Source: Patescibacteria group bacterium
Lineage (GTDB): Bacteria; Patescibacteriota; UBA1384; XYA2-FULL-43-10; 1-14-0-10-43-13
Direction of reading: 5' to 3'
Assembly: GCA_041671645.1 (NCBI GenBank)
Contig: JBAZBD010000001.1
Location: forward strand, 337,217-401,216
Length of the DNA stretch: 64,000 bases
Shown here one piece after another: positions 8,443 through 44,112 of the stretch. The notes under the pieces are model-generated. The model was not told where the DNA came from. It made no database searches and saw only the letters and a list, made by a program, of their open reading frames with translations. Both the position numbers and the translations under genes were made by a program. Positions within the stretch are counted from its first letter, which is position 1, and the number at the start of each line of letters is the position of its first letter.

Positions 8443-8503
8443 TGACGAGCCAGTTTTTAATTATCTAGCGTAAATTATATTTTTCAGCTAAGATCATTGC
8501 TAT

Positions 8504-9787
8504 ATGAATTCATACAAAACGATCACAAATACCCCAGCGTCTCCAGGCGTATATCGTTTCCTCGATCAAAAGGGGAAGGTTTTGTATTTGGGTAAAGCCA
8601 AAAATCTGAAGAATCGAATTAAGCAATATTTCATGAAAGAGCTTGGTCGCGGGCCAGCGATCGAGATAATGGTCCAGGAAGCTGTTGATATCAAGTGGAT
8701 TGAGACTGATTCTGAGATTGAGGCGGTAATCCTTGAAGCAGAATTGATCAAGAAGCTAAAGCCAAAGTACAACGTACGGCTGAAGGATGACAAGTCATTC
8801 TTGGCAATAAAGATTGCTAAGAGTGGCCATCCTTCGCCAAGGCTACGGTCGGCAGACGGAGAATTCCCATTGGTTGAGCTCGTTCGATTCAAAAATATTG
8901 ATCTCTCCGACAAGACAGCCGACTATTTTGGCCCATATCCGTCTGGATTGTTATTGAAGAAATCCCTGCAATATTTGCGTAAGATCTTTCCATTTCGTGA
9001 TTGTTCGAAGACCAAGTTTAACATTTACAAGCGCAAAGGCCGCCCCTGCATTTACGGTGATATCCGAGTATGCTCTGGCCCATGCAATGAGTGGGTGGAT
9101 GAGAAACAATACGGCAAGAATATCTCATATCTAAAAAGTTTTCTTCGAGGCAAGAAGCAGTTGATTATCGCAAGTCTTGAAAAGGAAATGAACCGATTGA
9201 GCCGCGCCAAAAAATTTGAAGAGGCAGCACTTGTCCGAAATAAATTGGCCGCTTTGAACCATTTGAAAGATGTGGCGATTGGGCTGCGAGATGACGTTTT
9301 CGAGAAGAGAATTATTTTCAAACGGATAGAATGTTATGACATCGCGAATATCGGATCAAAATATGCTGTCGGTTCGATGGTGGTGTTTTCTGACGGTAAA
9401 TCAGACAAAGAAGAGTATAAGAAATTTAAAATTCGTGTGTCGGACGATCAAGAGCAGAGCGATTTGGCTAGGCTAAAGCAGGTGCTTGAGCGAAGATTCG
9501 GGAACAATTGGCCAAAGCCCGATTTGATGGTGATAGACGGAGGGACATTGCAATTAAAGATTGCTCTGGAGGTATTGAAAGATACTGGTTTTGATATTCC
9601 TGTCGTCTCGATTTCCAAGGGACCGAAAAGGCAAAAAAATGATTTTCATTACGGCAATCCTTTCGTGGCTAGCTATCTAGCCGGCAATGATGAAGCCAAA
9701 AATATATTGATCTCGGCTCGCGATGAGGCCCATCGCTTCGCTATCGAGTACTACCGCAAACTCCACCGCAAAGATCTGATCAAATAA
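8504..9787 (+). CDS. uvrC: Excinuclease ABC subunit C, short form lacking the C-terminal (HhH)2 domain
   Basis: N-terminal GIY-YIG (GVYRF..VLYLGKAKNLKNR), a UVR-like helix and a UvrC RNaseH-like endonuclease core. The protein ends at EAHRFAIEYYRK. Confidence 0.75.
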   Translation: MNSYKTITNTPASPGVYRFLDQKGKVLYLGKAKNLKNRIKQYFMKELGRGPAIEIMVQEAVDIKWIETDSEIEAVILEAELIKKLKPKYNVRLKDDKSFLAIKIAKSGHPSPRLRSADGEFPLVELVRFKNIDLSDKTADYFGPYPSGLLLKKSLQYLRKIFPFRDCSKTKFNIYKRKGRPCIYGDIRVCSGPCNEWVDEKQYGKNISYLKSFLRGKKQLIIASLEKEMNRLSRAKKFEEAALVRNKLAALNHLKDVAIGLRDDVFEKRIIFKRIECYDIANIGSKYAVGSMVVFSDGKSDKEEYKKFKIRVSDDQEQSDLARLKQVLERRFGNNWPKPDLMVIDGGTLQLKIALEVLKDTGFDIPVVSISKGPKRQKNDFHYGNPFVASYLAGNDEAKNILISARDEAHRFAIEYYRKLHRKDLIK

Positions 9788-9823
9788 TATTGCTAGCAAT
9801 CTCTATTGTGGTAATATTATTCC

Positions 9824-10840
9824 ATGCTGAAAAAGTTTGCCAAAAATTGGTGGAAGTGGCTTCGGTTTGACCCATCAGACCCGAGATTCAACGCAGGTGG
9901 GGCTATCAAAATTGCGGTCATCGGCGGCGGTACGGGCTTGTCGAATTTACTTCGCGGATTGAAAAAGTACTCTGACCAGATCACAGCGATTGTGGCGGTG
10001 ACTGATGATGGCGCCTCTTCTGGCGAGATCAGGGCGGAATACGATATGTTGCCGCCAGGGGACATCAGAAAATGTATTTCGGCGCTCGCCTACGACGAAG
10101 AATTGGTCGGCAAAGTTTTCGAATACCGTTTCAAGAAGAGACTTTTTGGCGGCCACACCTTGGGCAATATTTGGATTACAGCAATGACGGAGATCGCTGG
10201 CTCATTTGAGAAATCGATCGAGGCGACTTCTAGTATTTTCCAGACCGCCGGTAAGGTATTGCCAGCGACGCTCAATAAGATTGATTTGGTGGCAGATTTC
10301 ACCGACGGTACTGCGATGAGAGGGGAATCAAAGTTCGTCAAAGCTGGCAAGATAATTAGGAAAGTATATTTGTCAGAGAAGGGCGTCAGGGCTTACGCCA
10401 AGGCGACCAAGGCGATCAAGGAGGCGGACCTGATAATTATCGGGCCGGGCAGTCTCTACACTAGTATCATGCCAAACCTTTTGATTTCTGGCCTCAGAAA
10501 TGCGCTCAAGGCGAGTAGTTCAGTAAAAATCTATATTGCAAACTGCTCAACTGAACGTGGAGAGACGGAAAATTATACAGTTGAAGATCATATTAGGGCG
10601 CTGGAGAGCCATGCTGGTGCCAATATATTTGATTACGCTCTTGTCAATTCTCGGGTGCTACGACGTTCGATCAAGAGCGACAAGCTTGGCGAAGTCTATA
10701 ATATCACGACCAAGCAGAAAGAGGTTGGCCGGATAAAAATCGTTCGTGCGGATCTCGTCGATCAGAAGAATCCGCTTTATCATGACCCAAACAAATTGGC
10801 CAAAAAGGTAATTGGATTGTATAATGAAATCAAGCATTAG
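9824..10840 (+). CDS. YvcK / UPF0052 (CofD-like) family protein
   Basis: IAVIGGGTGLSNLLRGL...AIVAVTDDGASSGEIR is the hallmark of the gluconeogenesis-factor YvcK family. Confidence 0.8.
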   Translation: MLKKFAKNWWKWLRFDPSDPRFNAGGAIKIAVIGGGTGLSNLLRGLKKYSDQITAIVAVTDDGASSGEIRAEYDMLPPGDIRKCISALAYDEELVGKVFEYRFKKRLFGGHTLGNIWITAMTEIAGSFEKSIEATSSIFQTAGKVLPATLNKIDLVADFTDGTAMRGESKFVKAGKIIRKVYLSEKGVRAYAKATKAIKEADLIIIGPGSLYTSIMPNLLISGLRNALKASSSVKIYIANCSTERGETENYTVEDHIRALESHAGANIFDYALVNSRVLRRSIKSDKLGEVYNITTKQKEVGRIKIVRADLVDQKNPLYHDPNKLAKKVIGLYNEIKH

Positions 10841-10863: not shown

Positions 10864-11607
10864 ATGAAACGTTCTATCATCGTCGGTAATTGGAAGATGT
10901 ATGCGACAAGCATAGCTGACGCTCATGTTTTGGCGACATCGATCAGGAATGGCGTGGCCAAGGTCCCTGGGGTTGAAGTAATTCTCTGTCCGCCCTCGCT
11001 CTGGCTGACTGAAATGGCTCTGATATTGAAGAAAAATCCGACTACGATGCTCGGAGCCCAGAATATGTTTCATGAAATCGAAGGAGCGTTTACCGGAGAA
11101 ATCTCGCCTCTGATGTTGAAAGAAGTTGTAAATTATACGATTATTGGACACTCGGAGCGCCGAGAATATTTCGGCGAAACTGATTTTGATGTCAACGAAA
11201 AAGTTTTGGCCGCTCTTAAGGCCAAGATCACTCCGATAATCTGTGTGGGCGAGCGAAGGACGAAGAACAAGCCGGAAGAACCGGTCAAAGAACTCAAGGA
11301 AGCGTTGGATCATGTTCCCAAGAGCAGACTGAAAGATATTATCGTGGCTTACGAGCCAGTCTGGGCTATCGGCACAGGTGAAAATGCCGAGCCAGAATAT
11401 GTTGCACGGGTGATTAGCAAGCTGCGTGAAATTGTGAGCGATTCTACCCCAATTCTATATGGCGGTAGCGTCAAGTCTAGCAATATCAAAGGCTATGCCG
11501 AGCGTCCAGAAATTGATGGTGTACTGGTCGGCGGTGCTTCGGTCAGAAGTGGAGAATTCATCACAATCTGCAAAACATGGTCAGACGTAAAATCGATTAA
11601 AAAGTAG
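10864..11607 (+). CDS. tpiA: Triosephosphate isomerase
   Basis: GNWKMY, IIGHSERR, AYEPVWAIGTG and YGGSV motifs. Confidence 0.95.
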   Translation: MKRSIIVGNWKMYATSIADAHVLATSIRNGVAKVPGVEVILCPPSLWLTEMALILKKNPTTMLGAQNMFHEIEGAFTGEISPLMLKEVVNYTIIGHSERREYFGETDFDVNEKVLAALKAKITPIICVGERRTKNKPEEPVKELKEALDHVPKSRLKDIIVAYEPVWAIGTGENAEPEYVARVISKLREIVSDSTPILYGGSVKSSNIKGYAERPEIDGVLVGGASVRSGEFITICKTWSDVKSIKK

Positions 11608-11615
11608 GAGAAAGT

Positions 11616-12614
11616 ATGAAAATTGCAATCAATGGCTTCGGACGTATCGGCCGAGCAGTAGCCAAAATCATTACTGAGAGAGAAGGTTTTGATCTAGTCG
11701 CTATCAACGATTTGACTGACGACGCCACCTTGGCTCATCTGCTCAAATATGATTCAAATTATGGTGTTTGGGATCACGAAGTCGGTTACGAAGAGGGCTC
11801 CATTATTATCGACAAACGAAAGATCCACTCATTTGCCCAGAAGAATCCAGCTGAATTACCTTGGAGTGAGCTTGGGATTGATGTAGTTGTAGAGTCGACG
11901 GGATTTTTTCTGACGACCGAAGATGCCAATGCCCATATCAAAGCAGGGGCGAAGAAGGTGGTCATGTCCGCACCGCCAAAGGATGAGACTCCGATGTTTG
12001 TGATGAGCGTAAACGCTGATGATTACAAAGGTGAAGAGATAATTTCAAATGCTTCATGTACGACGAATTGTATTACTCCTGTGATGAAAGTTCTCGAGGA
12101 CGAATTTGGGATCGAAAAATCATTGATGACGACGATTCACTCATATACTGCAGACCAAAATTTGGTTGATGGCCCACACAAAGATCTGCGTCGCGCCCGA
12201 GCGGCTGCTTGCAATATTGTCCCGACCTCAACTGGCGCGGCCAAAGCTGCTTTCAAGACTATTCCAGAGCTCAAAGGCAAATTTGATGGTTTGGCAGTAC
12301 GTGTACCGACACCAGTAGTTTCACTCTCGGATATCGTGGCAGTGCTGAAGAAGGACGTCACTGCCGAAGAGGTGAATAGGGCGTTCAAGAAGGCAGAAGA
12401 GGAGAAAATGAAGGGAATTCTGGGCACGACTGATGAGCCACTCGTTTCTTCTGACTTTATCGCCACGAAATTTTCCTCGGTTGTTGATCTCTCTCTGACA
12501 CAGGTTGTCGGAGGAAATTTGGTCAAAATTATAGCTTGGTATGACAACGAGTGGGGTTATTCGGAGAGACTTGTGGACATGATTGAAGTAGCCAACAGCA
12601 AATCAAAAAATTAG
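11616..12614 (+). CDS. gap: Glyceraldehyde-3-phosphate dehydrogenase
   Basis: INGFGRIGR NAD-binding motif and ASCTTNC active-site cysteine. Confidence 0.95.
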   Translation: MKIAINGFGRIGRAVAKIITEREGFDLVAINDLTDDATLAHLLKYDSNYGVWDHEVGYEEGSIIIDKRKIHSFAQKNPAELPWSELGIDVVVESTGFFLTTEDANAHIKAGAKKVVMSAPPKDETPMFVMSVNADDYKGEEIISNASCTTNCITPVMKVLEDEFGIEKSLMTTIHSYTADQNLVDGPHKDLRRARAAACNIVPTSTGAAKAAFKTIPELKGKFDGLAVRVPTPVVSLSDIVAVLKKDVTAEEVNRAFKKAEEEKMKGILGTTDEPLVSSDFIATKFSSVVDLSLTQVVGGNLVKIIAWYDNEWGYSERLVDMIEVANSKSKN

Positions 12615-12661
12615 AAATTAGAGCAATTAGAAATTAGGAATTTAACTCCAAAGGAGTTCAG

Positions 12662-12889
12662 GTGTGTCTTGCAATCCCAGGGAAAATTAAAAAAATTGAT
12701 GGTGTCAAAGCCTATTTTGATTATGACAAGAAAGAGTACGAAGCAGATATTTCACTAGCCCCTGAGGTAGAAAAAGGGGATTGGATATTGATGCATGATG
12801 GCCGAGCGCTATCAAAGATTACTGAGAAAGAAGCGCTTGAGAATCTGGAATTTATCAAAACCCATGAGGGGATGGAGTGTTTGCTCTAG
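12662..12889 (+). CDS. hypC: [NiFe] hydrogenase maturation chaperone HypC
   Basis: GTG start, 75 aa beginning MCLAIPGKI (HypC MC(L/I)(A/G)(I/V)P motif). RBS aaggag. Immediately downstream of gap. Confidence 0.8.
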   Translation: MCLAIPGKIKKIDGVKAYFDYDKKEYEADISLAPEVEKGDWILMHDGRALSKITEKEALENLEFIKTHEGMECLL

Positions 12890-12974
12890 GCCGCTATAAA
12901 GGTTTTATTTGATCTCGATTAAACACCTCATATATATGCCTGCCCGCCTTTGGAGGGAGGTGTTTGTGTTACAA

Positions 12975-13003
12975 ATAAAAAACCGCTGAGATTTCAGCGG
13001 TTT
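12975..13003. terminator. Bidirectional intrinsic terminator
   Basis: aaaaaaccgctgagatttcagcggtttct with stem aaccgctga/tcagcggtt, flanked by A/T runs. Lies between the convergent hypC and the 13009..13746 gene. Confidence 0.7.
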
Positions 13004-13008
13004 CTGAT

Positions 13009-13746
13009 TTATCTGCTATTTTGTTGTTCTGGTCTCGGACGGAGTCTTTTGTAGAGGGGAAGAGGTTGGCAATCTGTCCCTTGCCTTTCCTGATTGAGCG
13101 GATCGCCATCCCACAATTTGATAAGGAAATGCCAGATAGTGCCAAGCGGACCAGCGATTGCCATGAGCGTGCTGAAATCGTCCTCAGAGTCGAACTGTTT
13201 CTCGTAGGTTTGACCTTGAACGATAACTGCCCACATCCATAAAAGGATTATGGCGATTATCCACCGAAACAGTGCGAAGACGCCAAACGGTGGATAGGCT
13301 CCGCAGGCCCAGCCGATGATCAGCCAATAAACACCGAAGACCACGATCCCAACGGCGATGGTAGCGATTCGATTGAGCAGCCCTCTCCACGGATAGAGAA
13401 GATTTTGCGCAATTGCGCACCAGCCGCTCAAATATCCGCCTGACCAGTTGAATCCGATCTGTCCTGCGATAGATTGCACCAATAGGTAACAGGGTAGGAT
13501 GACCGGGGCGGTCAAGGGAAGAAAAAATCGGTCAGTCAGGCCAGCGTTCAACTGGCGGTCATAGTCGTATATTCCGACCATGAGCGTTACGGTGACGAAC
13601 CAGATCGCTATCAGCGCGATAGTCTTGGAATACCATTGCTGGTATTCTGGGAGTAGACTGCCTTGGCAGTAAAACAAAGCCAGGGCATAGCTTGTCATTA
13701 ATATGACAAACAGGAACAAAGCAAGAAGTCTTCTAAGCCAAACCAT
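13009..13746 (-). CDS. Integral membrane protein (hypothetical)
   Basis: Multiple hydrophobic helices. Start chosen at MVWLRRLL with RBS aaggaga (the track ORF extends to 13794). Confidence 0.55.
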   Translation of the reverse strand: MVWLRRLLALFLFVILMTSYALALFYCQGSLLPEYQQWYSKTIALIAIWFVTVTLMVGIYDYDRQLNAGLTDRFFLPLTAPVILPCYLLVQSIAGQIGFNWSGGYLSGWCAIAQNLLYPWRGLLNRIATIAVGIVVFGVYWLIIGWACGAYPPFGVFALFRWIIAIILLWMWAVIVQGQTYEKQFDSEDDFSTLMAIAGPLGTIWHFLIKLWDGDPLNQERQGTDCQPLPLYKRLRPRPEQQNSR

Positions 13747-13916
13747 ATTTCTGTCTCCTTTGGTCGAAGCGTTTCGTTGAGAGCATAGTAGCACAAATTA
13801 GGAGTTTTGGGAAGAATGTGGCGTAATATGGCGAATACTTTGTCTTTCATTGTGGCTGGGAGGATGACGGGGTATAATAGAAGCAGGGAATTAACTAATA
13901 AAACGGAAGGGACATT

Positions 13917-14288
13917 ATGGGTTTGAAAGAATTGCTCAAAGGAGCTGTCGAAGGTACTGGGGAAGTAGCAGAGTCGTTAATGACGGCGGTCACTGGAGTC
14001 CTCAAAGAGGGCACAGAGGACGTTGCCAATATATTTGGTGCTGTGATCGAATTGGGTAAAGATGGCGTAGTGGACGTTAGCGAAGCGGTCAGAGATGTCT
14101 ATGTCAGCGCAGTCAAATCATTGACTGATTCAGGCAAGACGACAGAGGAAGCGGTTGCAGAAGTTACGACCAAGGCAGAAGAAGCAGTCAAGAATATCGG
14201 CACAGAGGGCATGGCTACAATCGGCGAAGCCGCCAAGAAGGGTATCGAAGAGGCCAAAGGCATCGTCAAAGAGCCATTTGCAAAATAA
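13917..14288 (+). CDS. Hypothetical acidic protein (123 aa)
   Basis: Good RBS context. Ala/Glu/Lys-rich repetitive sequence. Terminator hairpin at 14313..14342. Confidence 0.5.
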   Translation: MGLKELLKGAVEGTGEVAESLMTAVTGVLKEGTEDVANIFGAVIELGKDGVVDVSEAVRDVYVSAVKSLTDSGKTTEEAVAEVTTKAEEAVKNIGTEGMATIGEAAKKGIEEAKGIVKEPFAK

Positions 14289-14352
14289 ATTTAGTTTATT
14301 TTAGGTTCCACAAAAATAGAAGCATGAAAGTGCTTCTATTTTTATTTGGAGT

Positions 14353-15147
14353 TTAGACGTCTTTTTTGTTGAAGATTATTACCGATCCCGTAAGCCCGAT
14401 CAAAAATATTCCAGCCAAAACTATCAAATTGCTTAGATTCAATTCACCGGTTTGCAAGATTTTTTGAGGATCATAGAGATGGAATATAGAAAGGTAATCT
14501 AGGTCCTTGATACTGTCAACCATTCTGGTCAAGGATAGGAAAACATATGAAGCGAGACCAAACATAACGACTGCTAGCATCACGCTCATTTTCGAACGGA
14601 GAAAAGAGGAGAGAAAAATCCCAATACCGTAGAATGCCCAGACAAAAAGGGTGACAAAAGCGGAGAAGGCGAGCAGACCTGTGATTTTGAATTCAGCATT
14701 GAATATTTTGCCAAAAACAAACATTGAAAGTGCTGTAGCTAAGACAATACCCATAGAGTATAGTAGGGCAATCACTGATTGTGAGATAACGAACTTCGTG
14801 CGAGGAATAGGCTGAGATAGATTGAAATCCATAGTCTTCTTTTCAATTTGCCCAGCAATAGCTGACCCTGCAGCGCTACCGACATAGAAAAGCACAATCA
14901 ATATAAAGAAGAAAGATAGAAATTCCATGGAGAGGTAGCCCTCGATCGAGGTGTAGGCCGAAGTAAGATCGTTACCAAAAAATTTTGTGAATTGCTCAGG
15001 CATCTGCGACATCATTGCCTTGATGTCCATCTTTTGGAGGGAGGGGAAGAGGCTAATCATCAGAAGACAATAGGCAGAAATTCCAATTATGTATATTAGA
15101 ACACTGTTTTTTTGCTCAGTAAATTGTCGTTTAATAATATTCCACAT
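14353..15147 (-). CDS. ABC-2 type transporter permease
   Basis: Six predicted TM helices. Start MWNIIKRQ overlaps the ATPase stop (ATGA-like coupling). The track ORF 14353..15261 is an out-of-frame N-terminal over-extension. Confidence 0.75.
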   Translation of the reverse strand: MWNIIKRQFTEQKNSVLIYIIGISAYCLLMISLFPSLQKMDIKAMMSQMPEQFTKFFGNDLTSAYTSIEGYLSMEFLSFFFILIVLFYVGSAAGSAIAGQIEKKTMDFNLSQPIPRTKFVISQSVIALLYSMGIVLATALSMFVFGKIFNAEFKITGLLAFSAFVTLFVWAFYGIGIFLSSFLRSKMSVMLAVVMFGLASYVFLSLTRMVDSIKDLDYLSIFHLYDPQKILQTGELNLSNLIVLAGIFLIGLTGSVIIFNKKDV

Positions 15148-15148
15148 A

Positions 15149-16036
15149 TCAATGTTTCTCGTAATAATGCAAAAATATTTCTTCGAGCGATGGCTCAGAA
15201 ATTTTAAAGTCAGAAATCTTGAATTTGGAGAGTGATCGGATAATCTCGGCGTTCTTGCCACTGGTGGTCAAGCGATAGCCTGAAGTTGTGCGTTCAATCT
15301 TCTTGACCCCTGGAATCTTCAAATTCGATAGGGGGAGTGATTCGGAGGTCTCGAGGGAAATTGTCCGAATATTCTTTTCTCTAAAGGCGTCAATGTTTTC
15401 TATAGCCAATAGTTTGCCGTTTTTTATAATGCCGACACGGTCACAAATTTTCTCGGCTTCCTGCAAGATATGGGTTGAGAAGAAAGTGGTCGTCCCCCAT
15501 CTCTTGGTATCTTCGATGGTGTTATAAAATTCGGTTTGATTGATCGGGTCAAGCCCGCTGGTCGGCTCGTCCAAAATCAGCAGTTTTGGTTTGTGCATCA
15601 GAGCCAAGACGATTGCTAGTTTCTGTTTGTTCCCCTTGGAGTAATCCCCGACCTTCTTCCTAAGGTCCAGCCCAAACCTGTCGATTAGTCTTTTGATATA
15701 TTTCTCATCGAGATTTGATTTGAAGCCCTTATAGTAATTCAAGCAATCATGTCCGTGCATCGCTTCTGGCAGAAAGATTTCTCCTGGCAAGAATCCAATC
15801 TGCTGGCGGATGGCGACAGTATCTTTGTGGCAATCAAGACCGAGAATAGAAGCCTTGCCAGAAGTCGGCCTGATCAGATCCAAGAGCAAACGGATTGTGG
15901 TCGACTTCCCTGCTCCATTTGGTCCGATGAAGCCAAAAATTTCGCCCTCGTTGACGCTGATATCTAGGTCTTTCACCCCGATGACTTTGCCGCGGGTATA
16001 ATATTTGGTCAAATTTTTGGTCTCAATCGCTTGCAT
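15149..16036 (-). CDS. ABC transporter ATP-binding protein
   Basis: Walker A GPNGAGKST, signature-like YSKGNKQKL, Walker B LLILDEPTSGLD. Confidence 0.9.
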   Translation of the reverse strand: MQAIETKNLTKYYTRGKVIGVKDLDISVNEGEIFGFIGPNGAGKSTTIRLLLDLIRPTSGKASILGLDCHKDTVAIRQQIGFLPGEIFLPEAMHGHDCLNYYKGFKSNLDEKYIKRLIDRFGLDLRKKVGDYSKGNKQKLAIVLALMHKPKLLILDEPTSGLDPINQTEFYNTIEDTKRWGTTTFFSTHILQEAEKICDRVGIIKNGKLLAIENIDAFREKNIRTISLETSESLPLSNLKIPGVKKIERTTSGYRLTTSGKNAEIIRSLSKFKISDFKISEPSLEEIFLHYYEKH

Positions 16037-16073
16037 AATATTATTATACTACAATTATATTTTTTGTTTCCAA

Positions 16074-17315
16074 TTAATGCGTGGCGCAGGTGATGCAGGG
16101 ATCGTACGAACGGATCAGCATCTCGATCATGGCCGTTCTCTCATCTGGCCGAAGTTTGGCCAGAATTGGTCCGATTTTCTTCATATCAGATTCTAGGGCG
16201 GGGAGGCTTTGGACGGTCGGTGTGACAATGTCACACTTTTTGATGAATCCCTCTTTGTCCAATTCGTAATAGTGAAAAAGCGTACCGCGAGGAGCTTCAC
16301 AGGCGGAGGTGCCTTTCCCGAACTTCTTGGGCTCGACTAATTTCTCTTCCTTGACCCCGTCACTGATTATTTTTTTCAATATTTCGATCGAGAGTTCGAC
16401 GAAATAATAATTTTCGATCGCTTGGGCGATAATATTATCGAACGGATTAGTGAAAGGAAGCTTAATCTTAAATTCTTTTAGCAATTTACCCACTTGCTCA
16501 CTCGGTAGACCATTTAAATTCATACGTGCAATCGCTCCGACCATGATAGTTTTGCCTTTCAATGTGGCAAATTTTGCTCGAGTGTAGGGCTTCAGTTTTT
16601 CAACAAGATATTCAGAATACAACTCTGGAGCGAAAGCTTTTCTTTTTGAAGCGCGGATATTACCTTCATAAAAAGCGTATTCTCCCTTTGACTCAAGGGC
16701 GCTATAGATCATCTCGCGCTCAACCTTGGGATATTTGAAACTCTTAAATAGCGCTACAGTTTGCTCTGCAATTTCCAAAATATCAGCAGAAGAGTCCAGC
16801 AATTCTTTCAGCTTATTTTTCGTCGGGTATGACTTAAATCCGCCGGGGACGGAGGCGATAGGGTGAACGGCTCGTCCGCCGATCGTCTCGATGATTTTAT
16901 CAGCGTAACGCTTGAGCTCGATGGCGTTCTTGAACAGTTCAGGATGATTTTTTTGCAATTCAAAAGACGAACTAGATCCAACAAAATCAGGCAGTACGAG
17001 GAGATAGAGGTGGAGGGAGTGGCTTTGAATCATTTGGCCAGCCAGCATCAATTTTCTAAGCGTTTTGGTCTGCTCTGTGACCTCAATTCCACAGGCGGCC
17101 TCAATGGCTCGATTGGCAGTAGTATTGTGGATAGTCGGGCAAATGCCACAGATTCTCGAAGTTATAATCGGCGCCTCCCAATATTGGCGGCCAACCAAAA
17201 TTTTCTCAACAAAACGGTCGTTCTCAAGCCCGATCATCCTAGCTTTGTCGACCTGTCCGCTTTTCAGGTGGGTATAAAACGCGGCATGGCCCTCAATTTT
17301 TGGTACTGATTCCAT
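16074..17315 (-). CDS. hydA: [NiFe] hydrogenase large (alpha) subunit, group 3b-like
   Basis: N-terminal RICGICPTIH and C-terminal DPCITCATH nickel-binding motifs. About 413 aa as in group 3 enzymes. The ORF ends at the final His with no C-terminal extension. Confidence 0.9.
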   Translation of the reverse strand: MESVPKIEGHAAFYTHLKSGQVDKARMIGLENDRFVEKILVGRQYWEAPIITSRICGICPTIHNTTANRAIEAACGIEVTEQTKTLRKLMLAGQMIQSHSLHLYLLVLPDFVGSSSSFELQKNHPELFKNAIELKRYADKIIETIGGRAVHPIASVPGGFKSYPTKNKLKELLDSSADILEIAEQTVALFKSFKYPKVEREMIYSALESKGEYAFYEGNIRASKRKAFAPELYSEYLVEKLKPYTRAKFATLKGKTIMVGAIARMNLNGLPSEQVGKLLKEFKIKLPFTNPFDNIIAQAIENYYFVELSIEILKKIISDGVKEEKLVEPKKFGKGTSACEAPRGTLFHYYELDKEGFIKKCDIVTPTVQSLPALESDMKKIGPILAKLRPDERTAMIEMLIRSYDPCITCATH

Positions 17316-18004
17316 TATTTTAATTCTCCGTAGATTGTCATCATATTTTCCATTTCTTTTTTGCCAATCATTGGCTCCAAGATTTGCTTCAGTTTTTCAA
17401 TATTTGGCTCGGGAATTGTGCCGCGGCAACCTAGACAGGCTTCGCCATTGTTTACACATACAGAATTGCAACCCATGCGGGTGATCGGGCCGAGGCAGGG
17501 CTTGCCCTGCTTGATCAGGCATTCATTGCCATTTTCACGACAAACGAAGCAGACAGCGAGGTCGGGGAGGACGAAGGTTTTGCCCCAATAAATGTCCATC
17601 AAGCATTTGAAAAGTTCTTTGGCTCGGATTGGACAGCCGGGGATTATATAGTCGACTTTGACCACGTCCAATACTGTTTGGACCTTGGCTTTGTCGATCG
17701 ATTTCCTGGGTTTGCTATTTCTTTCCGACTGAATTCCTCCGAGATGAGCGCATGCGCCAAGAGCGATTACAATATCGGAATGACGGCGAATATTTTTCAA
17801 AAATTTAATCTGTCTTTCCCCGTCTGGGCTTCCTTCTACAATGGCGACGTCAAATGGGCCTTCAAAATTGTCCTCTTGGCCAAGGCGGAAATTTTTCAAA
17901 TCGTAAAATTGGAGAATTTTGTTGAACTCTTCATAATGATTGAGCATCTCAAACTGGCATCCTTCGCAACTAGTCAAACTAAAAATCGCTAGCGTTTTTT
18001 TCAT
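17315..18004 (-). CDS. hydD: [NiFe] hydrogenase small (delta) subunit
   Basis: LTSCEGCQ proximal cluster motif, GCPIRAKE and further Cys clusters. 1 nt overlap with hydA. Confidence 0.85.
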   Translation of the reverse strand: MKKTLAIFSLTSCEGCQFEMLNHYEEFNKILQFYDLKNFRLGQEDNFEGPFDVAIVEGSPDGERQIKFLKNIRRHSDIVIALGACAHLGGIQSERNSKPRKSIDKAKVQTVLDVVKVDYIIPGCPIRAKELFKCLMDIYWGKTFVLPDLAVCFVCRENGNECLIKQGKPCLGPITRMGCNSVCVNNGEACLGCRGTIPEPNIEKLKQILEPMIGKKEMENMMTIYGELK

Positions 18005-18789
18005 TTGCCGATTTCTCCTTTGATTTTGTCGTATGCGAAGACTGGCCCGTCTTTGCAGACAAGATATTTGCCAATGCTACAATGTTGGCAGATGCCGATG
18101 CCGCACTCCATCCGCCTTTCGTATGAGATAAATATTTGATTGTCCTGGATCCCCTTCTTGGCCAATTCCTCGATGCAAAAAGGCACCATCACTTCTGGTC
18201 CGCAAATCAGCGCGACCGTCTTTTTGTGATTCAATTTTAGTTTTTCGATTCCATCAGTGATCAAACCCTTTTCGCCCCAGAAACGCTCTGTGGCGACTTC
18301 GGTCATTGCATGAACTTTAAATATTTTTGACCAGGATTTGAGATCATTTTCGAAAAGAAGATGCTCGGAACTTCGAAATCCTGCTACGACGGCGATATTT
18401 TTCTGATTCTTCTCCAGCATCGATGAGATAAGTGGTCGCAGGGGGACAAGGCCAAGACCACCAGCAATCATGACGATTTCTTTGCCTCGTAATTTTTCGA
18501 TCGGCCAGCCAATGCCATAAGGCCCTCGGACGCTCATCTCGTCTCCTGGCATGAGGTCGGCCAAATGATGAGAAGTCGAGCCGCAATTTCGGATACAAAT
18601 CTCAAAATATTTTTCATTGCTCGGTGATGAACAGGGAGCAAAAGTTGCTTCGCCAAAATGGTCTGAGGAGATTTCGACAATCTGGCCAGGCATGAATTTC
18701 AAATTGCCTCTGAGCCTGAAGAGGAAAGTCGAAGGCGCGACCTCGGTTTTTGCGGAGATAGTATATTTTTTTGAAGCAAAATTAAGCAT
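18001..18789 (-). CDS. hydG: Hydrogenase gamma subunit (FAD/NAD(P)-binding, 2Fe-2S)
   Basis: Ferredoxin-NADP reductase-like fold (GPYG, MIAGGLGLVPLRPL) with a C-terminal CGIGICQHC 2Fe-2S motif. Overlaps its neighbours. Confidence 0.8.
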   Translation of the reverse strand: MLNFASKKYTISAKTEVAPSTFLFRLRGNLKFMPGQIVEISSDHFGEATFAPCSSPSNEKYFEICIRNCGSTSHHLADLMPGDEMSVRGPYGIGWPIEKLRGKEIVMIAGGLGLVPLRPLISSMLEKNQKNIAVVAGFRSSEHLLFENDLKSWSKIFKVHAMTEVATERFWGEKGLITDGIEKLKLNHKKTVALICGPEVMVPFCIEELAKKGIQDNQIFISYERRMECGIGICQHCSIGKYLVCKDGPVFAYDKIKGEIGK

Positions 18790-19717
18790 TGTTTCCTAGG
18801 TCTTCCATTATTTTGTGTTGATTTAAGTGTGCTGGGCAGGCGGTGATACATCGGCCGCATCCGGTGCAGAGGAAATGGCCGCTTTTGTCATAAGCTCTGA
18901 CAAATTTGTGATGATACCAGTTATAAAGCCGATCTTTGTTCGTAGGCCGAAAATCATTGTGGTTTTGAATTTCGGAAAATGATTTGGCGAAACAGCTGTC
19001 CCAGCCAGCACATTTCTGGCAACTACCATCAGTTGGATTCCGATATTCTTTCTTGGTGCAAAAGCAAAGTGGGCATACGGCAGTGCAGGCGCCGCAACCG
19101 AAACAATTGTCACCGATACCCCGCCAAAACTCCTCTCGACTGGCCTTGTCGGCTACTGATTCATTTATTTTCTTCTTGTTCAGCTTTGTAACATTTTTGA
19201 GCACGATTTCGGGCGGTTCTTCATTGCTTTTCTTTTTCAGATGTTGGAGTTTCAGTATCTCTTTGCCCTTGGCGCTACCGGGGAAAAGTGCAAAATGATC
19301 GCCCTCTTTCTCGACAAAAAGATCAAAATTCTCGATTTTGCCTGGACCGAAGGCGGTGCAAAAGCAGTCTTTGTCGGGCTGGCAATGGTAAATAACGGTG
19401 AAAATCTCGCGAGGGAGCAAATCAGTTTGATCGAATTCCTTCCGAAATATCTGGAGCGCTTTGGCGTCGCAATTTGTGATCCCCCAAATCGCAATTTTCT
19501 CGTCCTTGAGAGTGGAGTCGAGCAGCCTTCCATTGGGATAGAGCAAGTTTTTGAATGGAATGATGCTTTTGGGTAGTGGCAGGGGAACATGATGAAAGTT
19601 TGTGAGTTCGCCAAACTCAAGCTTACCGTCAAGCTCTAAAGGCCCCCAAATCTTGTGCGTTTGCTTGATATAATGGAATATCTGGCTGAGCTGATGCTCA
19701 GAAACTAGGACTTTCAT
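18782..19717 (-). CDS. hydB: Hydrogenase beta subunit (Fe-S, AsrA-like)
   Basis: CFGCGACTAVCPLC and CTGCGRCITACP 4Fe-4S motifs. First gene of the hydBGDA operon. Confidence 0.8.
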   Translation of the reverse strand: MKVLVSEHQLSQIFHYIKQTHKIWGPLELDGKLEFGELTNFHHVPLPLPKSIIPFKNLLYPNGRLLDSTLKDEKIAIWGITNCDAKALQIFRKEFDQTDLLPREIFTVIYHCQPDKDCFCTAFGPGKIENFDLFVEKEGDHFALFPGSAKGKEILKLQHLKKKSNEEPPEIVLKNVTKLNKKKINESVADKASREEFWRGIGDNCFGCGACTAVCPLCFCTKKEYRNPTDGSCQKCAGWDSCFAKSFSEIQNHNDFRPTNKDRLYNWYHHKFVRAYDKSGHFLCTGCGRCITACPAHLNQHKIMEDLGNNA

Positions 19718-19833
19718 TTCCCGCTCCTTACTATTAACTTTATTTTACATTTTTTGATCTGTTTCAGCAATCAAATTTTGAAAGTTTGGCTTCATAGTGT
19801 TAAGATTTATTTAATTAATGTTTTGGAGCTAGA

Positions 19834-20955
19834 ATGCGTATTATTCAAGATGCGGATGTAAAAAACAAAAAAGTATTTCTTCGTGTGGATTTCAACGTTC
19901 CCTTGGCGGATGGAAAAGTAGTCGACAACAATAGAATTTTGGCAGCAGTCCCGACTATCCGAATGCTGGCCGAAAGCCGTGCCAAAATAATTATTGGCAC
20001 CCATATCGGTCGACCTGACGGGCAGAAAACAGCCGAAACTTCAGTCTTGCCGGCGGCCAAGGAATTGCAAAGGATTCTCAATCTGAAAGTCGAAGTTGCT
20101 CCTGATATTTTGGGCCCGGAGACGGAGAAGATGGTAGCCAATTTGAAGCCAGGCGGAATATTGGTCTTGGAAAATTTGCGCTGGGACAAGCGGGAAGAGG
20201 AGAATGCCCCAGAATTTGCACAGGAATTGGCCAAATATGGCGAAATCTACGTCAACGACGCCTTTGCTGTCTCGCATCGTGCCAATGCCTCAGTCGAAGC
20301 AATTACGAAATTATTGCCAAGTTATGCAGGACTCTTGCTTCAATCAGAAGTTTCTCATCTCGAGCTCTTGATTCAGGATCCGAAGCACCCTTTCACCGTC
20401 ATTATCGGCGGGGTCAAGGTGAAGGACAAGGCGGGCGTGATTGAGAGATTAGCCCCGTTAGCTGAAGATATCCTGATCGGCGGAGGAGTGGCTACCACTT
20501 TTCTAAAAGCACGAGGTGAAGAAATCGGCCAATCAATATTTGATGCGGAAATGGTAGAAGAGTGCAAGAAATTGCTCGAGAAACTCGGTGGTAAGCTCAA
20601 ATTACCATCTGATTTTGTCAAAGAGGAGACGCCTGAAGGCGGATTCAAAATTATGGATATCGGACCTGCTACGGCCAGAGATTTTTCTTCGATTATTCAA
20701 CGCTCAGAGACGATTCTCTGGAACGGCAGTCTCGGTTATAGCGAGGATTTGCGTTATCGCGAGGGCATGAAAATAGTGGCCAAGGCGATGGGGATGAACA
20801 GGGACGCTACGACAGTGGTGGCTGGCGGCGATACGGTCGGATTTATCAAACAGGAAAAGCTAGATAAGGGAATTTCCTTCATCTCAACCGGCGGAGGCGC
20901 AGCACTAGAATTCCTTGCAGGTGAACAATTGCCAGGAATTACAGCACTCGAATAA
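19834..20955 (+). CDS. pgk: Phosphoglycerate kinase
   Basis: VFLRVDFNVPL N-terminus and Pgk hinge and C-domain motifs (GGGVA, GGGA). Confidence 0.95.
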   Translation: MRIIQDADVKNKKVFLRVDFNVPLADGKVVDNNRILAAVPTIRMLAESRAKIIIGTHIGRPDGQKTAETSVLPAAKELQRILNLKVEVAPDILGPETEKMVANLKPGGILVLENLRWDKREEENAPEFAQELAKYGEIYVNDAFAVSHRANASVEAITKLLPSYAGLLLQSEVSHLELLIQDPKHPFTVIIGGVKVKDKAGVIERLAPLAEDILIGGGVATTFLKARGEEIGQSIFDAEMVEECKKLLEKLGGKLKLPSDFVKEETPEGGFKIMDIGPATARDFSSIIQRSETILWNGSLGYSEDLRYREGMKIVAKAMGMNRDATTVVAGGDTVGFIKQEKLDKGISFISTGGGAALEFLAGEQLPGITALE

Positions 20956-20971
20956 TTATTTGGGGAGGGAT

Positions 20972-21787
20972 GTGACAGACGTTTCTATAGAATTAAACAA
21001 AGCACGACGGGGCGGATACGCCTTGCCGGCTTTTAATACCAACAATATGGAGGTGACCAAGGCAATTTGCGCTGCCGCCGCCAAGTCTGACTTACCGATC
21101 TTGATCGCTACTACTCCGGGCGCGATAGAATATGCAGGACTGAAAAATATATTTGATATTGTCTCAAATGAGATCGATTCAACCGGCATCAAGGCGGCGA
21201 TTCATCTCGACCATGCCAAGGATTTTGGTATCATCAAGCAGGCGATCGATATTGGCTATAAATCCGTGATGTTTGATGGCTCGTCACTAGACTACGATGA
21301 AAATGTCGCAAATACTGAAAAAGTTGTCCGTTATGCCCATGAACATAATGTAGCAGTAGAAGCGGAAATTGGCGTAATTGCCCGCGAAGAGGGCGGTAAA
21401 TTATCAAACAAGGCAGTCTATTCCGCTCCAGAACAGGTCAAAAGGTTTGTCGACGATACAGGGATCGATTCGGTGGCAATATCGGTCGGCAATGAGCATG
21501 GCGCGCCTGTCGGAGAAAAACTAAATCTAGAATTACTTCGTCAAATCGCAGAGATTGTCGAGATCCCGCTCGTCCTTCATGGTTCGTCTGGACTCTCCTC
21601 TGGCGATGTTCGCGAGGCGATTTCGCTAGGAATTGCCAAGATCAATATTGATACCAACATCCGCAAAGCCTTCGTCTCGGCAATCGAATCGTCAAAGGAG
21701 TCAGATTATCGTAACGTGATGAAGGAGGGCATGGAAGAGGTCGAGAAGGTCGTGGAGCACTATATTAAATTACTTGGTGGCAAATGA
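20972..21787 (+). CDS. fba: Class II fructose-bisphosphate aldolase
   Basis: GYALPAFN, AIHLDHA and EAEIG motifs. Start reassigned to the GTG at 20972 after RBS ggggaggg (the track ORF overlaps the pgk 3' end). Confidence 0.85.
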   Translation: MTDVSIELNKARRGGYALPAFNTNNMEVTKAICAAAAKSDLPILIATTPGAIEYAGLKNIFDIVSNEIDSTGIKAAIHLDHAKDFGIIKQAIDIGYKSVMFDGSSLDYDENVANTEKVVRYAHEHNVAVEAEIGVIAREEGGKLSNKAVYSAPEQVKRFVDDTGIDSVAISVGNEHGAPVGEKLNLELLRQIAEIVEIPLVLHGSSGLSSGDVREAISLGIAKINIDTNIRKAFVSAIESSKESDYRNVMKEGMEEVEKVVEHYIKLLGGK

Positions 21788-22713
21788 AATATGATGTTGT
21801 GACAATTGGGGACGCGCTGGAAGATATATTCGTCAGCCCGAAACTAGACTCGAGATACGAGCGATCTTTTGGCTCGGGCAAAGGAATATGTTTTGAATTG
21901 GGCGAGAAGATCCCGCTCGAATGGGCGGAGCATCAAGTCGGTGGGTCGGCTTGCAACGTGGCCGTTGGCTTGGCAAGACTCGGGCTAAATTCTGCCGTCT
22001 GCACAACACTAGGCAAAGACGCGCCGGAGAAGAGAATCATGGAAGTTTTGGAGGATGAAGTCGTGGACACCGATTTGGTCAGGATAAATTCGGAGGCCAA
22101 GACTGGTTTCTCCGTCATTTTTTCGATCGATGGCGACCGAACGATCTTCGTCTATCATTCGACTGGAAAGATAGAAATTCCGCGTGATCTCTCGACCGAT
22201 TGGCTTTTCGTCGGTCCCCTACCTGAGGATTCAGAAAGTGTTGAGAAGCAGATTACGACTTTGGTCTCAGAAAAAAATATCAAATTGGCTTGGAATCCTG
22301 GTTCTCATCAGATTGCTCGAAAAGCGATTCATTACAAAAACTTATTACGCCTAACCTCAATTCTGTTCCTAAACAAAGACGAGGCGATTGATTTCCTAAA
22401 TTGTTCGATCAAGCCTTCTTGGGAAGATGCGCTTCGTCGACTGGCCGATTTTGGCCCCAAAATTATTGTGATCACCAACGGCAAAGAGGGCGTCAGGGCT
22501 TATGATGGCAAAGAAACTTATAGCGTAAATGCAGAGAAAAACGTCAAAGTTCTTGATTCTACCGGCGCTGGCGATGCCTTTGCTACAGCTTTCCTGGCTA
22601 GAATGATACAAGATCCAGAAAATATAGAGCTCGCCTTGAAGCAGGGGATCGAGAATTCGACCTCGGTAATCCGAAAAATCGGTGCTCAGACCGGGCTGCT
22701 CAGACGCTTCTAG
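21784..22713 (+). CDS. PfkB-family carbohydrate kinase (possible phosphofructokinase substitute)
   Basis: N-terminal VVTIGDALEDIF and C-terminal DSTGAGDAF motifs of the ribokinase/PfkB superfamily. Glycolytic neighbours. Confidence 0.75.
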   Translation: MKYDVVTIGDALEDIFVSPKLDSRYERSFGSGKGICFELGEKIPLEWAEHQVGGSACNVAVGLARLGLNSAVCTTLGKDAPEKRIMEVLEDEVVDTDLVRINSEAKTGFSVIFSIDGDRTIFVYHSTGKIEIPRDLSTDWLFVGPLPEDSESVEKQITTLVSEKNIKLAWNPGSHQIARKAIHYKNLLRLTSILFLNKDEAIDFLNCSIKPSWEDALRRLADFGPKIIVITNGKEGVRAYDGKETYSVNAEKNVKVLDSTGAGDAFATAFLARMIQDPENIELALKQGIENSTSVIRKIGAQTGLLRRF

Positions 22714-29339: not shown

Positions 29340-29566
29340 CGATCTAGTCGCAAAAAGATATGGACTGTGGAAAACAAGGGGAATCGTTTTTTTTGCTTAA
29401 AAAAGCAGGAATTATTTATTTGCAGATGTTCTTTAACAACTAAATAGTGATGAGAACGCTTGAAGATCGTTTAATTCGCAAGAGTTAAACGAAATCAATT
29501 TTTTTGAGATTTTAAATTTTCTCGGCGCAAGTCGAGAAGCAAATAGAGTCACTCAAATTCTTTTTG

Positions 29567-31010
<1,444 letters not shown>

Positions 31011-40865: not shown

Positions 40866-43780
<2,915 letters not shown>

Positions 43781-43989: not shown

Positions 43990-44112
<123 letters not shown>

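Follow-up and report, generated by a model that had tools for sequence, protein, structure and literature searches.

A CPR 'hyd1'-type group 3b [NiFe] hydrogenase, probably tied to glycolytic NADH, in a conserved block of lower-glycolysis genes

The window, by which we mean the whole 64-kb stretch of Patescibacteria DNA analyzed here, most likely encodes a soluble, four-subunit group 3b hydrogenase of the CPR 'hyd1' type that sits in a conserved lower-glycolysis block and reoxidizes glycolytic NADH (probability roughly 0.7). The hydrogenase type is already described in CPR, and the finding is sound but largely known. A CPR-specific group 3b clade, 'hyd1', with a hypC-like neighbor has been published (Jaffe et al. 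2020, PMC7304191), as has a 3b hydrogenase of Berkelbacteria and Moranbacteria (Valentin-Alvarado et al. 2024, PMC10811913), and these reports bear out the statement of the first-pass annotation that group 3b enzymes occur in CPR genomes. The sequences closest to the window HydA were labeled Berkelbacteria or Patescibacteria. Within their searchable text, neither paper mentions glycolytic flanks or an ABC-2 pair, a missing HydA C-terminal extension, or a split between HypD-linked and hydrogenase-linked HypC. New from our comparison are the clade-wide layout, the recurrent gap linkage, the dispensability of the ABC pair, the mature end of HydA, and the split between HypC paralogues.

All genes that the first-pass annotation had named between positions 10864 and 22713 were present (Table 1), with glycolytic genes on both sides of the hydrogenase as it had described: tpiA and gap to the left, and pgk, fba, and a pfkB-like gene to the right. 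The minus-strand hydB-hydG-hydD-hydA cluster was likewise recovered, with junction overlaps of 8, 4, and 1 nt (ATGCTTAA, ATGA, and TAATG), so that the four products are almost certainly made together. The pgk-fba-pfkB genes diverged from hydB, as proposed, across a short spacer with promoter-like sites at 19803-19775 (minus strand) and 19778-19806 (plus strand). Terminators were found only 3′ of hypC, 3′ of the ABC-2 permease gene, and 3′ of pfkB; with none in between, hypC is indeed the last gene of the unit that begins with tpiA and gap. The direct convergence of this unit on the hyd cluster did not hold, since two hairpins, a membrane ORF, a 123-aa ORF, and the ABC pair intervene. The membrane ORF, for which we found no Pfam match and no homologue at any relative's locus, is an insertion outside the conserved unit, while a homologue of the 123-aa ORF lay directly 3′ of hypC in L012, L013, and L014 (E-values of 1e-41 to 1e-45). 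The strong hairpin that follows this ORF closes both it and the hydBGDA-ABC transcription direction. Individual gene assignments drew on relatives as well: tpiA was supported by a PF00121 (TIM) match on the identical gene in L001 and by its conserved position in clade relatives, the permease gene call on L001 was of the same length as ours, and the equally long fba gene call on the same organism's Logan contig places the start at the ATG at 20972, not at an upstream TTG. For the pfkB-like gene the top NCBIfam model was ribokinase, at a score far under its cut-off.

Table 1. Coordinates of the features at the hydrogenase locus, as positions in the window
Feature	Position	Strand	Details
tpiA (triosephosphate isomerase)	10864..11607	+	First gene of the tpiA-gap-hypC unit; ORF
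gap (GAPDH)	11616..12614	+	Gp_dh_N/Gp_dh_C; synteny in clade relatives
hypC	12662..12889	+	GTG start, RBS AAAGGAG, N-terminus MCLAIPG
Hairpin terminator, bidirectional	12978..13005	both	Serves the hypC and membrane ORF ends; terminator-like on both strands; fold
Multi-pass membrane ORF, lineage-specific	13009..13794	-	245-261 aa
123-aa ORF	13917..14288	+	Ala/Glu/Val-rich
Strong hairpin, then T-run	~14311..14344		Fold -19.2 kcal/mol
ABC-2 family permease	14353..15147	-	264 aa from ATG at 15147; PF12679 4.6e-12
ABC ATPase, DrrA/ABCA-like (type V exporter) class	15149..16036	-	PF00005 + DrrA1-3_C
hydA-ABC spacer	16037..16073	-	37 bp, AT-rich
hydA, [NiFe] large subunit	16074..17315	-	413 aa; PF00374
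hydD, small (delta) Fe-S cluster subunit	17315..18004	-	229 aa; PF01058; ShyD 9e-50
hydG, gamma subunit, AsrB-like	18001..18789	-	FAD_binding_6, NAD_binding_1, DHODB_Fe-S_bind
hydB, beta subunit, poly-[4Fe-4S], AsrA-like	18782..19717	-	Fer4_22; ShyB 2e-33
hydB/pgk divergent control region	19718..19833		116 bp
pgk (phosphoglycerate kinase)	19834..20955	+	PF00162; synteny
fba (class II fructose-bisphosphate aldolase)	20972..21787	+	PF01116; 271 aa
pfkB-family sugar kinase	21784..22713	+	PF00294 5e-36
Hairpin 3′ of pfkB-like gene	~22746-22781		Fold

The assignment to group 3b with a four-subunit architecture, also made in the first-pass annotation, was corroborated by NCBIfam, Pfam, and PDB comparisons. 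HydA carried the L1 motif RICGICPTIH and the L2 motif DPCITCATH, together with the conserved EGH and PRG motifs; its Ni-Fe ligands (C56, C59, C407, and C410) were invariant across 23 clade relatives at 58-100% identity, as were the catalytic residues. Against NCBIfam models, HydA scored higher with ShyA (266 bits) and SHI HydA (250) than with VhuA of group 3c (171), FrhA of group 3a (142), or the NuoD-like model (30), although the match is a distant one, with hyd scores far under the equivalog cut-offs (for ShyA, 266 versus 700 bits). The top PDB match was the Pyrococcus furiosus SHI alpha subunit (4e-66), its 227 bits being only a small margin over the group 3c enzyme MvhA (211) and compared with 160 for Frh and 149 for HoxH. 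HydB matched SHI beta (9nez_B, 3e-17) and is a poly-ferredoxin, HydD is the Fe-S small subunit, and HydG, with FAD, NAD(P), and [2Fe-2S] domains, matched the AsrB, ShyC, and HydG models, the AsrB model outscoring ShyC/SHI gamma. The heterotetramer gene set (alpha, delta, AsrA-like beta, and AsrB-like gamma) was thus complete, contiguous, and overlapping. The 'hyd1' features were also present, namely a CPR genome, a large and a full-length small subunit, adjacent beta and gamma subunits, and a hypC gene 3.2 kb away. In a neighbor-joining tree of HydA, CPR, Altiarchaeota, and Bathyarchaeia clades were placed apart from other group-3-like matches. An identical HydA is already deposited at NCBI as a Patescibacteria MAG protein, on a contig of 867,751 bp.

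HydA ended at the mature C-terminal His in the window, as it did in all CPR loci, and being translated at mature length it does not need C-terminal processing. More distant, non-CPR group-3 relatives had a HydA tail of ~25 aa and an adjacent endopeptidase gene; no such gene was found in the 64-kb window or within ±10 kb of hydA in clade relatives. The hypC product matched PF01455 (1.5e-18; 67 bits, cut-off 28.5) and TIGR00074 (55.6 bits, cut-off 48). In alignment it retained Cys2 and, within LMHDGRA, the conserved His, and its tail contained His and Cys. Judged from its sequence, it belongs to a paralogue type linked to the hydrogenase and differs from the HypC that accompanies HypD in other CPR.

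The pairing of glycolysis and hydrogenase genes extended well beyond the window. All 19 genomes of the HydA clade retained the order pfkB-fba-pgk<>hydBGDA ... hypC-gap-tpiA to the extent visible on their contigs, of which three, being short or divergent, displayed only part of it. This layout, whose placement of hypC the first-pass annotation had called unusual, is the rule within this clade and nothing exceptional for CPR, hypC-like neighbors of CPR 3b hydrogenases having moreover been published (PMC7304191). Synteny in this clade reached unrelated housekeeping genes (cofD, uvrC, proS, tig, and clpP); because the whole neighborhood is syntenic, conservation within the clade is in itself no proof of a functional link, and the adjacency could be inherited gene order without functional meaning, as could also be argued from L032, L045, L088, L092, and L095, five hydrogenase loci of CPR where no glycolytic gene lies nearby despite long flanks. 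We regard that explanation as unlikely, because at least four further CPR arrangements place gap or other glycolytic genes beside those of a [NiFe] hydrogenase. In L025 and L026 gap is the neighbor of hydA, in L033 it diverges from hydB, L036-L047 read hydBGDA <hypC ... TrxR-Grx-gap-PPP-pfkB, and Moranbacteria L093 reads TIM-FBA-hypCDE ... hydDA-hypA-GAPDH. At least five gene orders, with HydAs only 35-47% identical to one another, thus have gap or other glycolytic genes no more than ~5 kb from hydA, and by a rough, informal estimate such proximity would arise by chance in ~1-2% of cases per independent lineage in a ~1-Mb genome. This recurrence supports a redox link between the hydrogenase and glycolysis. 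The AINDL motif of gap suggests that the GAPDH is NAD-specific under the textbook Asp32 rule. Electrons would move between the Ni-Fe site and NAD(P)H on HydG, with the Fe-S centers of HydG, HydB, and HydD as the wire, and in an organism without a respiratory chain the enzyme would most likely reoxidize NADH from the neighboring NAD-type GAPDH. Making H2 from NADH is thermodynamically unfavorable when H2 is not scavenged, and H2 would be released while partner organisms hold its partial pressure low. The GAPDH link put forward earlier gains from the recurrent adjacency of gap and hydrogenase genes. The direction of the reaction and the use of NADH rather than NADPH are inferred. A different role, chiefly as a sulfhydrogenase (polysulfide to H2S) or in uptake (H2 to NAD(P)H for thiol-redox or biosynthetic reactions) instead of H2 venting, appears doubtful to us. 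It would suit the resemblance of HydB and HydG to the anaerobic sulfite reductase subunits AsrA and AsrB, the P. furiosus sulfhydrogenases as nearest characterized enzymes, and a CPR clade 3 hydrogenase located beside thioredoxin-reductase-like, glutaredoxin, and pentose-phosphate genes; sulfhydrogenase or bifurcating roles also appear, in the searchable text, among those proposed for the Berkelbacteria and Moranbacteria enzymes (PMC10811913). However, in the window clade the hydrogenase is linked to lower glycolysis, which produces NADH, and not to sulfur genes, and the locus holds no sulfur-handling gene. Moreover, the reduction of sulfur by SHI counts as a side activity.

The same comparison bore on the two remaining components of the locus, the ABC-2 exporter pair and the maturation genes. 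The pair had been read as apparently co-transcribed with hydA, and the sequence around it is partly in keeping with this: it lies on the same strand 3′ of hydA, the spacer folds at only -4.0 kcal/mol with neither a hairpin nor a terminator-like site, and the sole strong terminator follows the permease gene. In 11 of the 18 assessable clade genomes the pair occupied the same position, and in L014 the ATPase start codon overlapped the hydA stop codon, which argues for some coupling; it may thus be read through from hydA. On the other hand, the spacer contains a promoter-like TGGAAA-N18-TATAAT, with 6 nt between the end of its -10 box and the ATPase ATG, and no Shine-Dalgarno sequence precedes this ATG. 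The pair was absent from 7 of the 18 genomes, which nevertheless have hydBGDA, and it is therefore dispensable; it was apparently disrupted in two more, being fragmented in L013 and L018, and was separated from hydA by one or two unrelated genes in L004 and L006. None of the other CPR hydrogenase clades examined had it, a distribution short of the conserved co-occurrence that marks a member of the hyd operon. With absences scattered on the HydA tree, the clade ancestor probably had the pair at this position, and repeated losses followed. Its proteins are of the ABC-2 exporter class, with PF00005, PF13732, and PF12679 all above gathering scores; the ATPase reached 212 bits with TIGR01188 (drrA), under the cut-off, and had ABCA1, Rv1218c, and NosF as top PDB relatives, while the permease had no sequence relative in the PDB. 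We know of no need of a cytoplasmic hydrogenase for an exporter, and a co-transcribed functional partner that exports a product or a metal is quite unlikely: the pair is not part of hydrogenase function. As for maturation, hypC was, as first reported, the sole hyp-family gene in view, with no hypA, B, D, E, or F in the 64-kb window or within ±10 kb of hydA in other clade genomes, and none of the at least ~200 CPR HypD clusters among the matches listed was on a contig of a window-clade genome. Maturation of the [NiFe] site needs hypD, E, and F, and in other CPR clades the hydrogenase is accompanied by hypC-D-E, a short hypA, and a truncated hypF. One could hence suppose that the window clade has lost hypD/E/F, and that its complex either is not a working [NiFe] hydrogenase or is matured by a minimal route using only the HypC-like protein. 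This is very doubtful, as the view spans 64 kb of an 868-kb contig and at most ~20 kb around hydA per relative, the HypD matches come from listings of up to 120 entries each, neither the Ni-Fe ligands nor the catalytic motifs vary, and the HypC-like protein retains the Cys2 and His that act with HypD; furthermore, L088 combines a window-type paralogue with a hypC-hypD-hypE(F) set, and the hyp genes of L095 are split among several loci. Since the window gene is the hydrogenase-linked paralogue, "only maturation gene" is probably true of the locus and not of the genome. Within the preferred reading, of a functional NADH-reoxidizing enzyme, this HypC-family chaperone would probably deliver the Fe(CN)2CO group to HydA. 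We consider it highly improbable that the Berkelbacteria-like clade has dispensed with HypD/E/F, HypA/B, and the endopeptidase and that a specialized, His/Cys-tailed HypC paralogue alone matures an intact [NiFe] site, which, if true, would need an unknown minimal pathway or a supply of cofactor or ligands from a host cell.

Among known systems, the window locus shares with the published CPR 3b enzymes, as far as their searchable text describes them, a CPR origin, four subunits, AsrA/B-like beta and gamma subunits, and a nearby hypC-like family (PMC7304191, PMC10811913). The window HypC has the size of ~75 aa, the N-terminal Met-Cys, and the conserved core His of the HypC/HybG/HupF family, but its core reads LMHDGRALSK versus VHAGFA in that family, its tail is rich in His and Cys, its gene comes last in a glycolytic operon and has no hypD beside it, and the paralogue tree separates it from HypD-linked HypC proteins, both those of CPR and those of other phyla. 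The ABC pair has the same composition as DrrAB/ABCA-like type V exporters, that is, an ATPase (ABC_tran plus DrrA C-terminal domain) and, as its own protein, a six-helix ABC2_membrane_2 permease, but lacks an equivalog-level match. The same four subunit types make up the group 3b enzymes P. furiosus SHI/SHII and Thermococcus kodakarensis Hyh (PDB 9e1j, 9e15, 9nez, and 5yxy), the P. furiosus sulfhydrogenases being the top sequence matches for the window HydA, HydD, and HydB, and the archaeal and window enzymes have in common the L1/L2 cysteine motifs and an NAD(P)-binding flavoprotein gamma subunit. In contrast to the archaeal SHI/Hyh, the window organism is bacterial and mesophilic with an ultra-small genome, its hyd genes lie amid glycolysis genes, and translation of CPR HydA stops short of the 4-residue C-terminal tail found on the archaeal SHI alpha precursor (428-aa chain, matched to residue 424).

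By sequence and subunit architecture, the hydrogenase encoded in the window is a group 3b enzyme, as had been proposed in the first-pass annotation. Specifically, the large subunit (HydA) matched the Pfam family NiFeSe_Hases, and it scored 266 bits against the NCBIfam model ShyA and 250 against that for HydA of Pyrococcus furiosus sulfhydrogenase I (SHI), well above VhuA (171) and FrhA (142). Its top matches in the PDB were SHI alpha (4e-66) and T. kodakarensis HyhL. ShyD and ShyB were the best NCBIfam matches for HydD and HydB, the latter matching SHI beta in the PDB (3e-17), while HydG resembled AsrB (202 bits) and PRK08345 (188 bits) more than ShyC (154 bits) and also matched SHI HydG. The resemblance of HydB and HydG to AsrA/AsrB is as group 3b predicts. 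All of the NCBIfam scores of the Hyd subunits were far under the equivalog cut-offs, and the subunits are therefore distant relatives of the modeled proteins. The HydA motifs RICGICPTIH, DPCITCATH, EGH, and EAPRG were invariant in an alignment with 23 relatives, at identities down to 58%.

Enzymes of this kind have been encountered before. The exact HydA was already in NCBI, on a contig of 867,751 bp, and hundreds of relatives of 413-417 aa are on record, several labeled Berkelbacteria. Jaffe et al. 2020 (PMC7304191) defined the CPR-specific 3b clades hyd1, which has four subunits, and hyd2, and saw that genes around CPR 3b enzymes include a hypC-like family. Valentin-Alvarado et al. 2024 (PMC10811913) described and modeled the Berkelbacteria and Moranbacteria enzyme. 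The family is thus not new, and the locus cannot be called unusual, as it initially had been, its kind being published and its layout being kept through the window clade (19 genomes sharing the HydA clade of the window). No hyp or family annotations were present in the supplementary tables of either paper, and the searchable literature gave nothing specific about hyp genes, or about a link to GAPDH, at the hydrogenase loci of CPR, nor a statement of glycolysis-hydrogenase linkage in CPR. Useful increments here are the cross-clade glycolysis linkage, the mature-length HydA, the split between HypC paralogs, and the question of hypD, hypE, and hypF.

The ORFs, overlaps, and spacers confirmed that the previously named genes occupy 10864-22713, running in three transcription directions. 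The junctions within hydB-hydG-hydD-hydA overlap, by ATGCTTAA, ATGA, and TAATG in turn, and 116 bp separate the divergent hydB and pgk. The tpiA-gap-hypC genes do not converge directly on the hyd cluster. Besides the ABC pair, two ORFs that the first-pass annotation had left out separate the two, lying between the end of hypC and the ABC-2 permease.

Coordinates of features at the window locus and of short HypF and HypA genes in other CPR loci
Locus	Feature	Position	Strand	Remarks
Window	tpiA	10864-11607	+	
Window	gap	11616-12614	+	
Window	HypC-family gene	12662-12889	+	75 aa; GTG start; ribosome-binding site AAAGGAG; N-terminus MCLAIPG
Window	Hairpin terminator	12978-13005		3' of hypC
Window	Membrane ORF	13009-13794	-	No family match
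Window	Ala/Glu/Val-rich ORF	13917-14288	+	123 aa
Window	Strong hairpin	~14311-14344		3' of ABC-2 permease
Window	ABC-2 permease	14353-15147	-	
Window	ABC ATPase	15149-16036	-	
Window	hydA-ABC spacer	16037-16073		37 bp; AT-rich; no hairpin
Window	hydA	16074-17315	-	
Window	hydD	17315-18004	-	
Window	hydG	18001-18789	-	
Window	hydB	18782-19717	-	
Window	pgk	19834-20955	+	
Window	fba	20972-21787	+	
Window	pfkB-family kinase	21784-22713	+	Hairpin after end
L033	Short HypF	7720-8925	-	
L088	Short HypF	12221-13417	-	
L092	Short HypF	14616-15929	-	
L093	Short HypF	12026-13246	-	
L033	Short HypA	11398-11670		
L026	Short HypA	1544-1825		
L093	Short HypA	16603-16878		

The 123-aa ORF lies directly 3' of hypC in three relatives' loci (L012-L014), and in the window the hairpin-flanked membrane ORF is inserted between the two. 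The pfkB-family kinase adjoins fba and pgk across the window clade, and in clade 3, another CPR hydrogenase clade, it has gap and pentose-phosphate genes nearby. It matched no equivalog model (best, ribokinase, 97 bits, cut-off 300) and might be the sugar-phosphate kinase that is missing from CPR glycolysis. Elsewhere in the window, the rRNA genes are unlinked (29561-31010, 40946-43766, and 43994-44110), with ~10 kb between 16S and 23S that holds protein-coding ORFs and, on opposite strands, tRNA-Ile and tRNA-Ala (34321-34397, +; 38569-38644, -). Exact look-up of the window rpsB and murB products returned no exact product on record, the start codons probably having been called differently.

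We compared the locus with four relatives obtained by exact look-up and with 80 loci taken from representative genomes of GTDB (HydA alignment), onto which the window proteins were mapped with phmmer. Across the window clade (HydA 51-70% identity), pfkB-fba-pgk diverging from hydBGDA, with hypC-gap-tpiA-cofD-uvrC-proS converging from the other side, was kept as far as contigs show in 19/19 genomes, being partial only in L015 and L019 (short contigs) and the divergent L022. Apart from L022, hypC was found in all 16 genomes whose contigs were long enough downstream of hydA. It followed gap by 0-290 nt in 12 of them and by 776 nt in one, and in three the genes were split by insertions (a P-type ATPase, seven small paralogs, or ~6 kb); in the simplest layouts (L002, L017, and L031), hypC was convergent with hydA, 57-197 nt from its end. 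Such conservation within the clade is alone no proof of a functional link, because unrelated housekeeping genes are also syntenic.

More distant CPR hydrogenase clades in the tree (HydA 35-47% identical) had independent gene arrangements. L025 and L026 carried hydA-hypA-(grx)-gap. In L033, where gap and hydB are divergent, hypC-hypD-hypE, a truncated hypF, and hypA were interspersed. The Moranbacteria locus (L093) had TIM-FBA-hypC-hypD-hypE, a truncated hypF, and hydD-hydA-hypA-GAPDH, while clade 3 (L036-L047) combined hydBGDA and a convergent hypC with EamA, DUF6390, thioredoxin-reductase-like, glutaredoxin, gap, rpiB, rpe, tkt, and pfkB genes. In two clade 3 loci (L037, 11410-19141; L041, 11416-21024), hydBGDA and the convergent hypC were followed by the EamA-to-pfkB genes as one co-oriented block, with transketolase present as halves, an arrangement suggestive of a module for NAD(P)H and thiol redox. 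Five long-flanked CPR loci (L032, L045, L088, L092, and L095) had no glycolytic neighbor. The adjacency occurred in at least five gene orders, against a chance of ~1-2% for one given gene (within 5 kb, 1-Mb genome), a rough estimate rather than a formal test. This recurrence, far above the chance estimate, is the main support for the link between glycolysis and the hydrogenase, which was already part of the first-pass interpretation.

To our knowledge, CPR bacteria lack a respiratory chain and can draw on few fermentative outlets, and the disposal of glycolytic reductant is therefore a real question. From the observed gene content, motifs, operon-like structure, and conserved neighborhoods, we infer an electron flow, a cofactor, and a valve function. 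HydG, HydB, and HydD would relay electrons through their Fe-S clusters, linking NAD(P)H at HydG with the Ni-Fe site. The neighboring GAPDH is predicted to be NAD-type from AINDL and the Asp32 rule, the textbook rule for NAD specificity in this enzyme, and the hydrogenase would be a valve for NADH from glycolysis, one that can work at low H2 only. A live alternative, with which the thiol-redox neighbors of the clade 3 hydrogenase are consistent, is that the enzyme works in uptake or as a sulfhydrogenase. That CPR H2 metabolism is tied to glycolysis is supported by several independent gene orders in which gap, tpiA, pgk, and fba are interspersed with hydrogenase genes and a dedicated chaperone gene, the best genomic evidence available here.

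Coupling of the hydrogenase to the ABC-2 exporter, also suggested in the first-pass annotation, did not hold across relatives. The 37 bp between hydA and the ABC ATPase, free of hairpins, were as it had reported, and the pair may be co-transcribed with hydA. However, the pair was downstream of hydA in only 11 of the 18 assessable window-clade genomes, the seven without it being scattered over the HydA tree, and was in no other CPR hydrogenase clade examined. Most economically, it was ancestral to the window clade and then lost repeatedly, and the hydrogenase does not need it. The spacer holds TGGAAA-N18-TATAAT, ending 6 nt before an ATPase ATG that has no Shine-Dalgarno sequence, and the ATPase is possibly driven by its own, perhaps leaderless, promoter. 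Several relatives have a -10-like hexamer 5-8 nt ahead of the ATG of their ATPase, although in such AT-rich spacers these could be chance, and L014 has a stop/start overlap instead. There, at ~11242, the hydA stop codon overlaps the ATPase start (CACTGATG), which suggests translational coupling of the transporter to hydA. From this overlap, spacing ranged up to 1185 nt; one or two unrelated genes intervened in L004 and L006, and in L013 and L018 the ORFs of the pair were split. The window ATPase resembles DrrA and ABCA, and no sequence relative of the permease was found in the PDB. A NosFY-like role was rejected, NosF being a far weaker match than the ABCA or Rv1218c ATPases and the permease lacking a PDB relative.

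For maturation genes, we searched all stop-to-stop frames, in the window as well as in every locus, with CPR HypD, HypE, truncated HypF, and short HypA (from L033 and L026) and with HypB, full-length HypF, and endopeptidase from non-CPR loci. The 64-kb window yielded neither hypA, B, D, E, or F nor an endopeptidase gene, and nor did the 10 kb to either side of hydA in the other genomes of the clade. Large protein searches with CPR HypD queries and a profile search across 1.84 billion representatives gave no HypD on window-clade contigs (867,751 bp; JGI Ga0376277_0000018, 971,566 bp; and JBAZNP010000001.1, 798,787 bp) among the matches listed, up to 120 per list, and all CPR HypD fell into one 50% cluster. 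We consider it improbable that the other hyp genes are truly absent from this clade, and the whereabouts of those that build Fe(CN)2CO is a question with real upside. Other CPR clades had a compact set beside the hydrogenase, consisting of hypC-hypD-hypE, a short HypF (~400 aa) with only the Kae1-like C-terminal half and no acylphosphatase, Zn-finger, or YrdC regions, and a short HypA-like protein (~90 aa) that starts MHD and lacks the CxxC zinc site.

Two CPR HypC types split in alignment and tree, the outgroup being what we take to be the E. coli HypC sequence, used for orientation only. The HypD-linked type has the core VHAGFA (L033, L088a, L092, L093, and L095), while the hydrogenase-linked type, to which the window hypC belongs, has LMHDGRALSK or LIHDxLAINK (window clade, clade 3, Altiarchaeota, and L088b). 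L088 has both (9789-10004 and 13414-13623), plus hypD, hypE, and hypF. In most window-clade members, HypC has a His/Cys-rich tail (e.g., THEEMACxxHE) that might bind metal.

The CPR HydA ended exactly at the His of DPCxxCxxH in all loci except L022, L021, and L047, the latter two hydA genes being apparently disrupted. In L022 (9388-10635), the most divergent clade member, HydA ends in DPCITCATQ, Gln replacing the terminal His; an EamA transporter follows hydA, and hypC was not found within 2.7 kb. As the CPR HydA ends at the mature His, no C-terminal processing would be needed. The locus offers concrete targets for metatranscriptomics and heterologous expression, namely a compact enzyme, at mature length upon translation and with its own chaperone alongside. 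Three of four Altiarchaeota HydA likewise ended at this His, whereas Bathyarchaeia HydA extended seven residues past it and distant non-CPR group-3-like HydA had ~25 extra residues, many with an endopeptidase gene directly downstream. The nearest PDB relative of the window HydA, P. furiosus sulfhydrogenase I alpha, is a distant likeness by the NCBIfam equivalog standard, and its precursor continues four residues beyond the point at which the CPR HydA stops.
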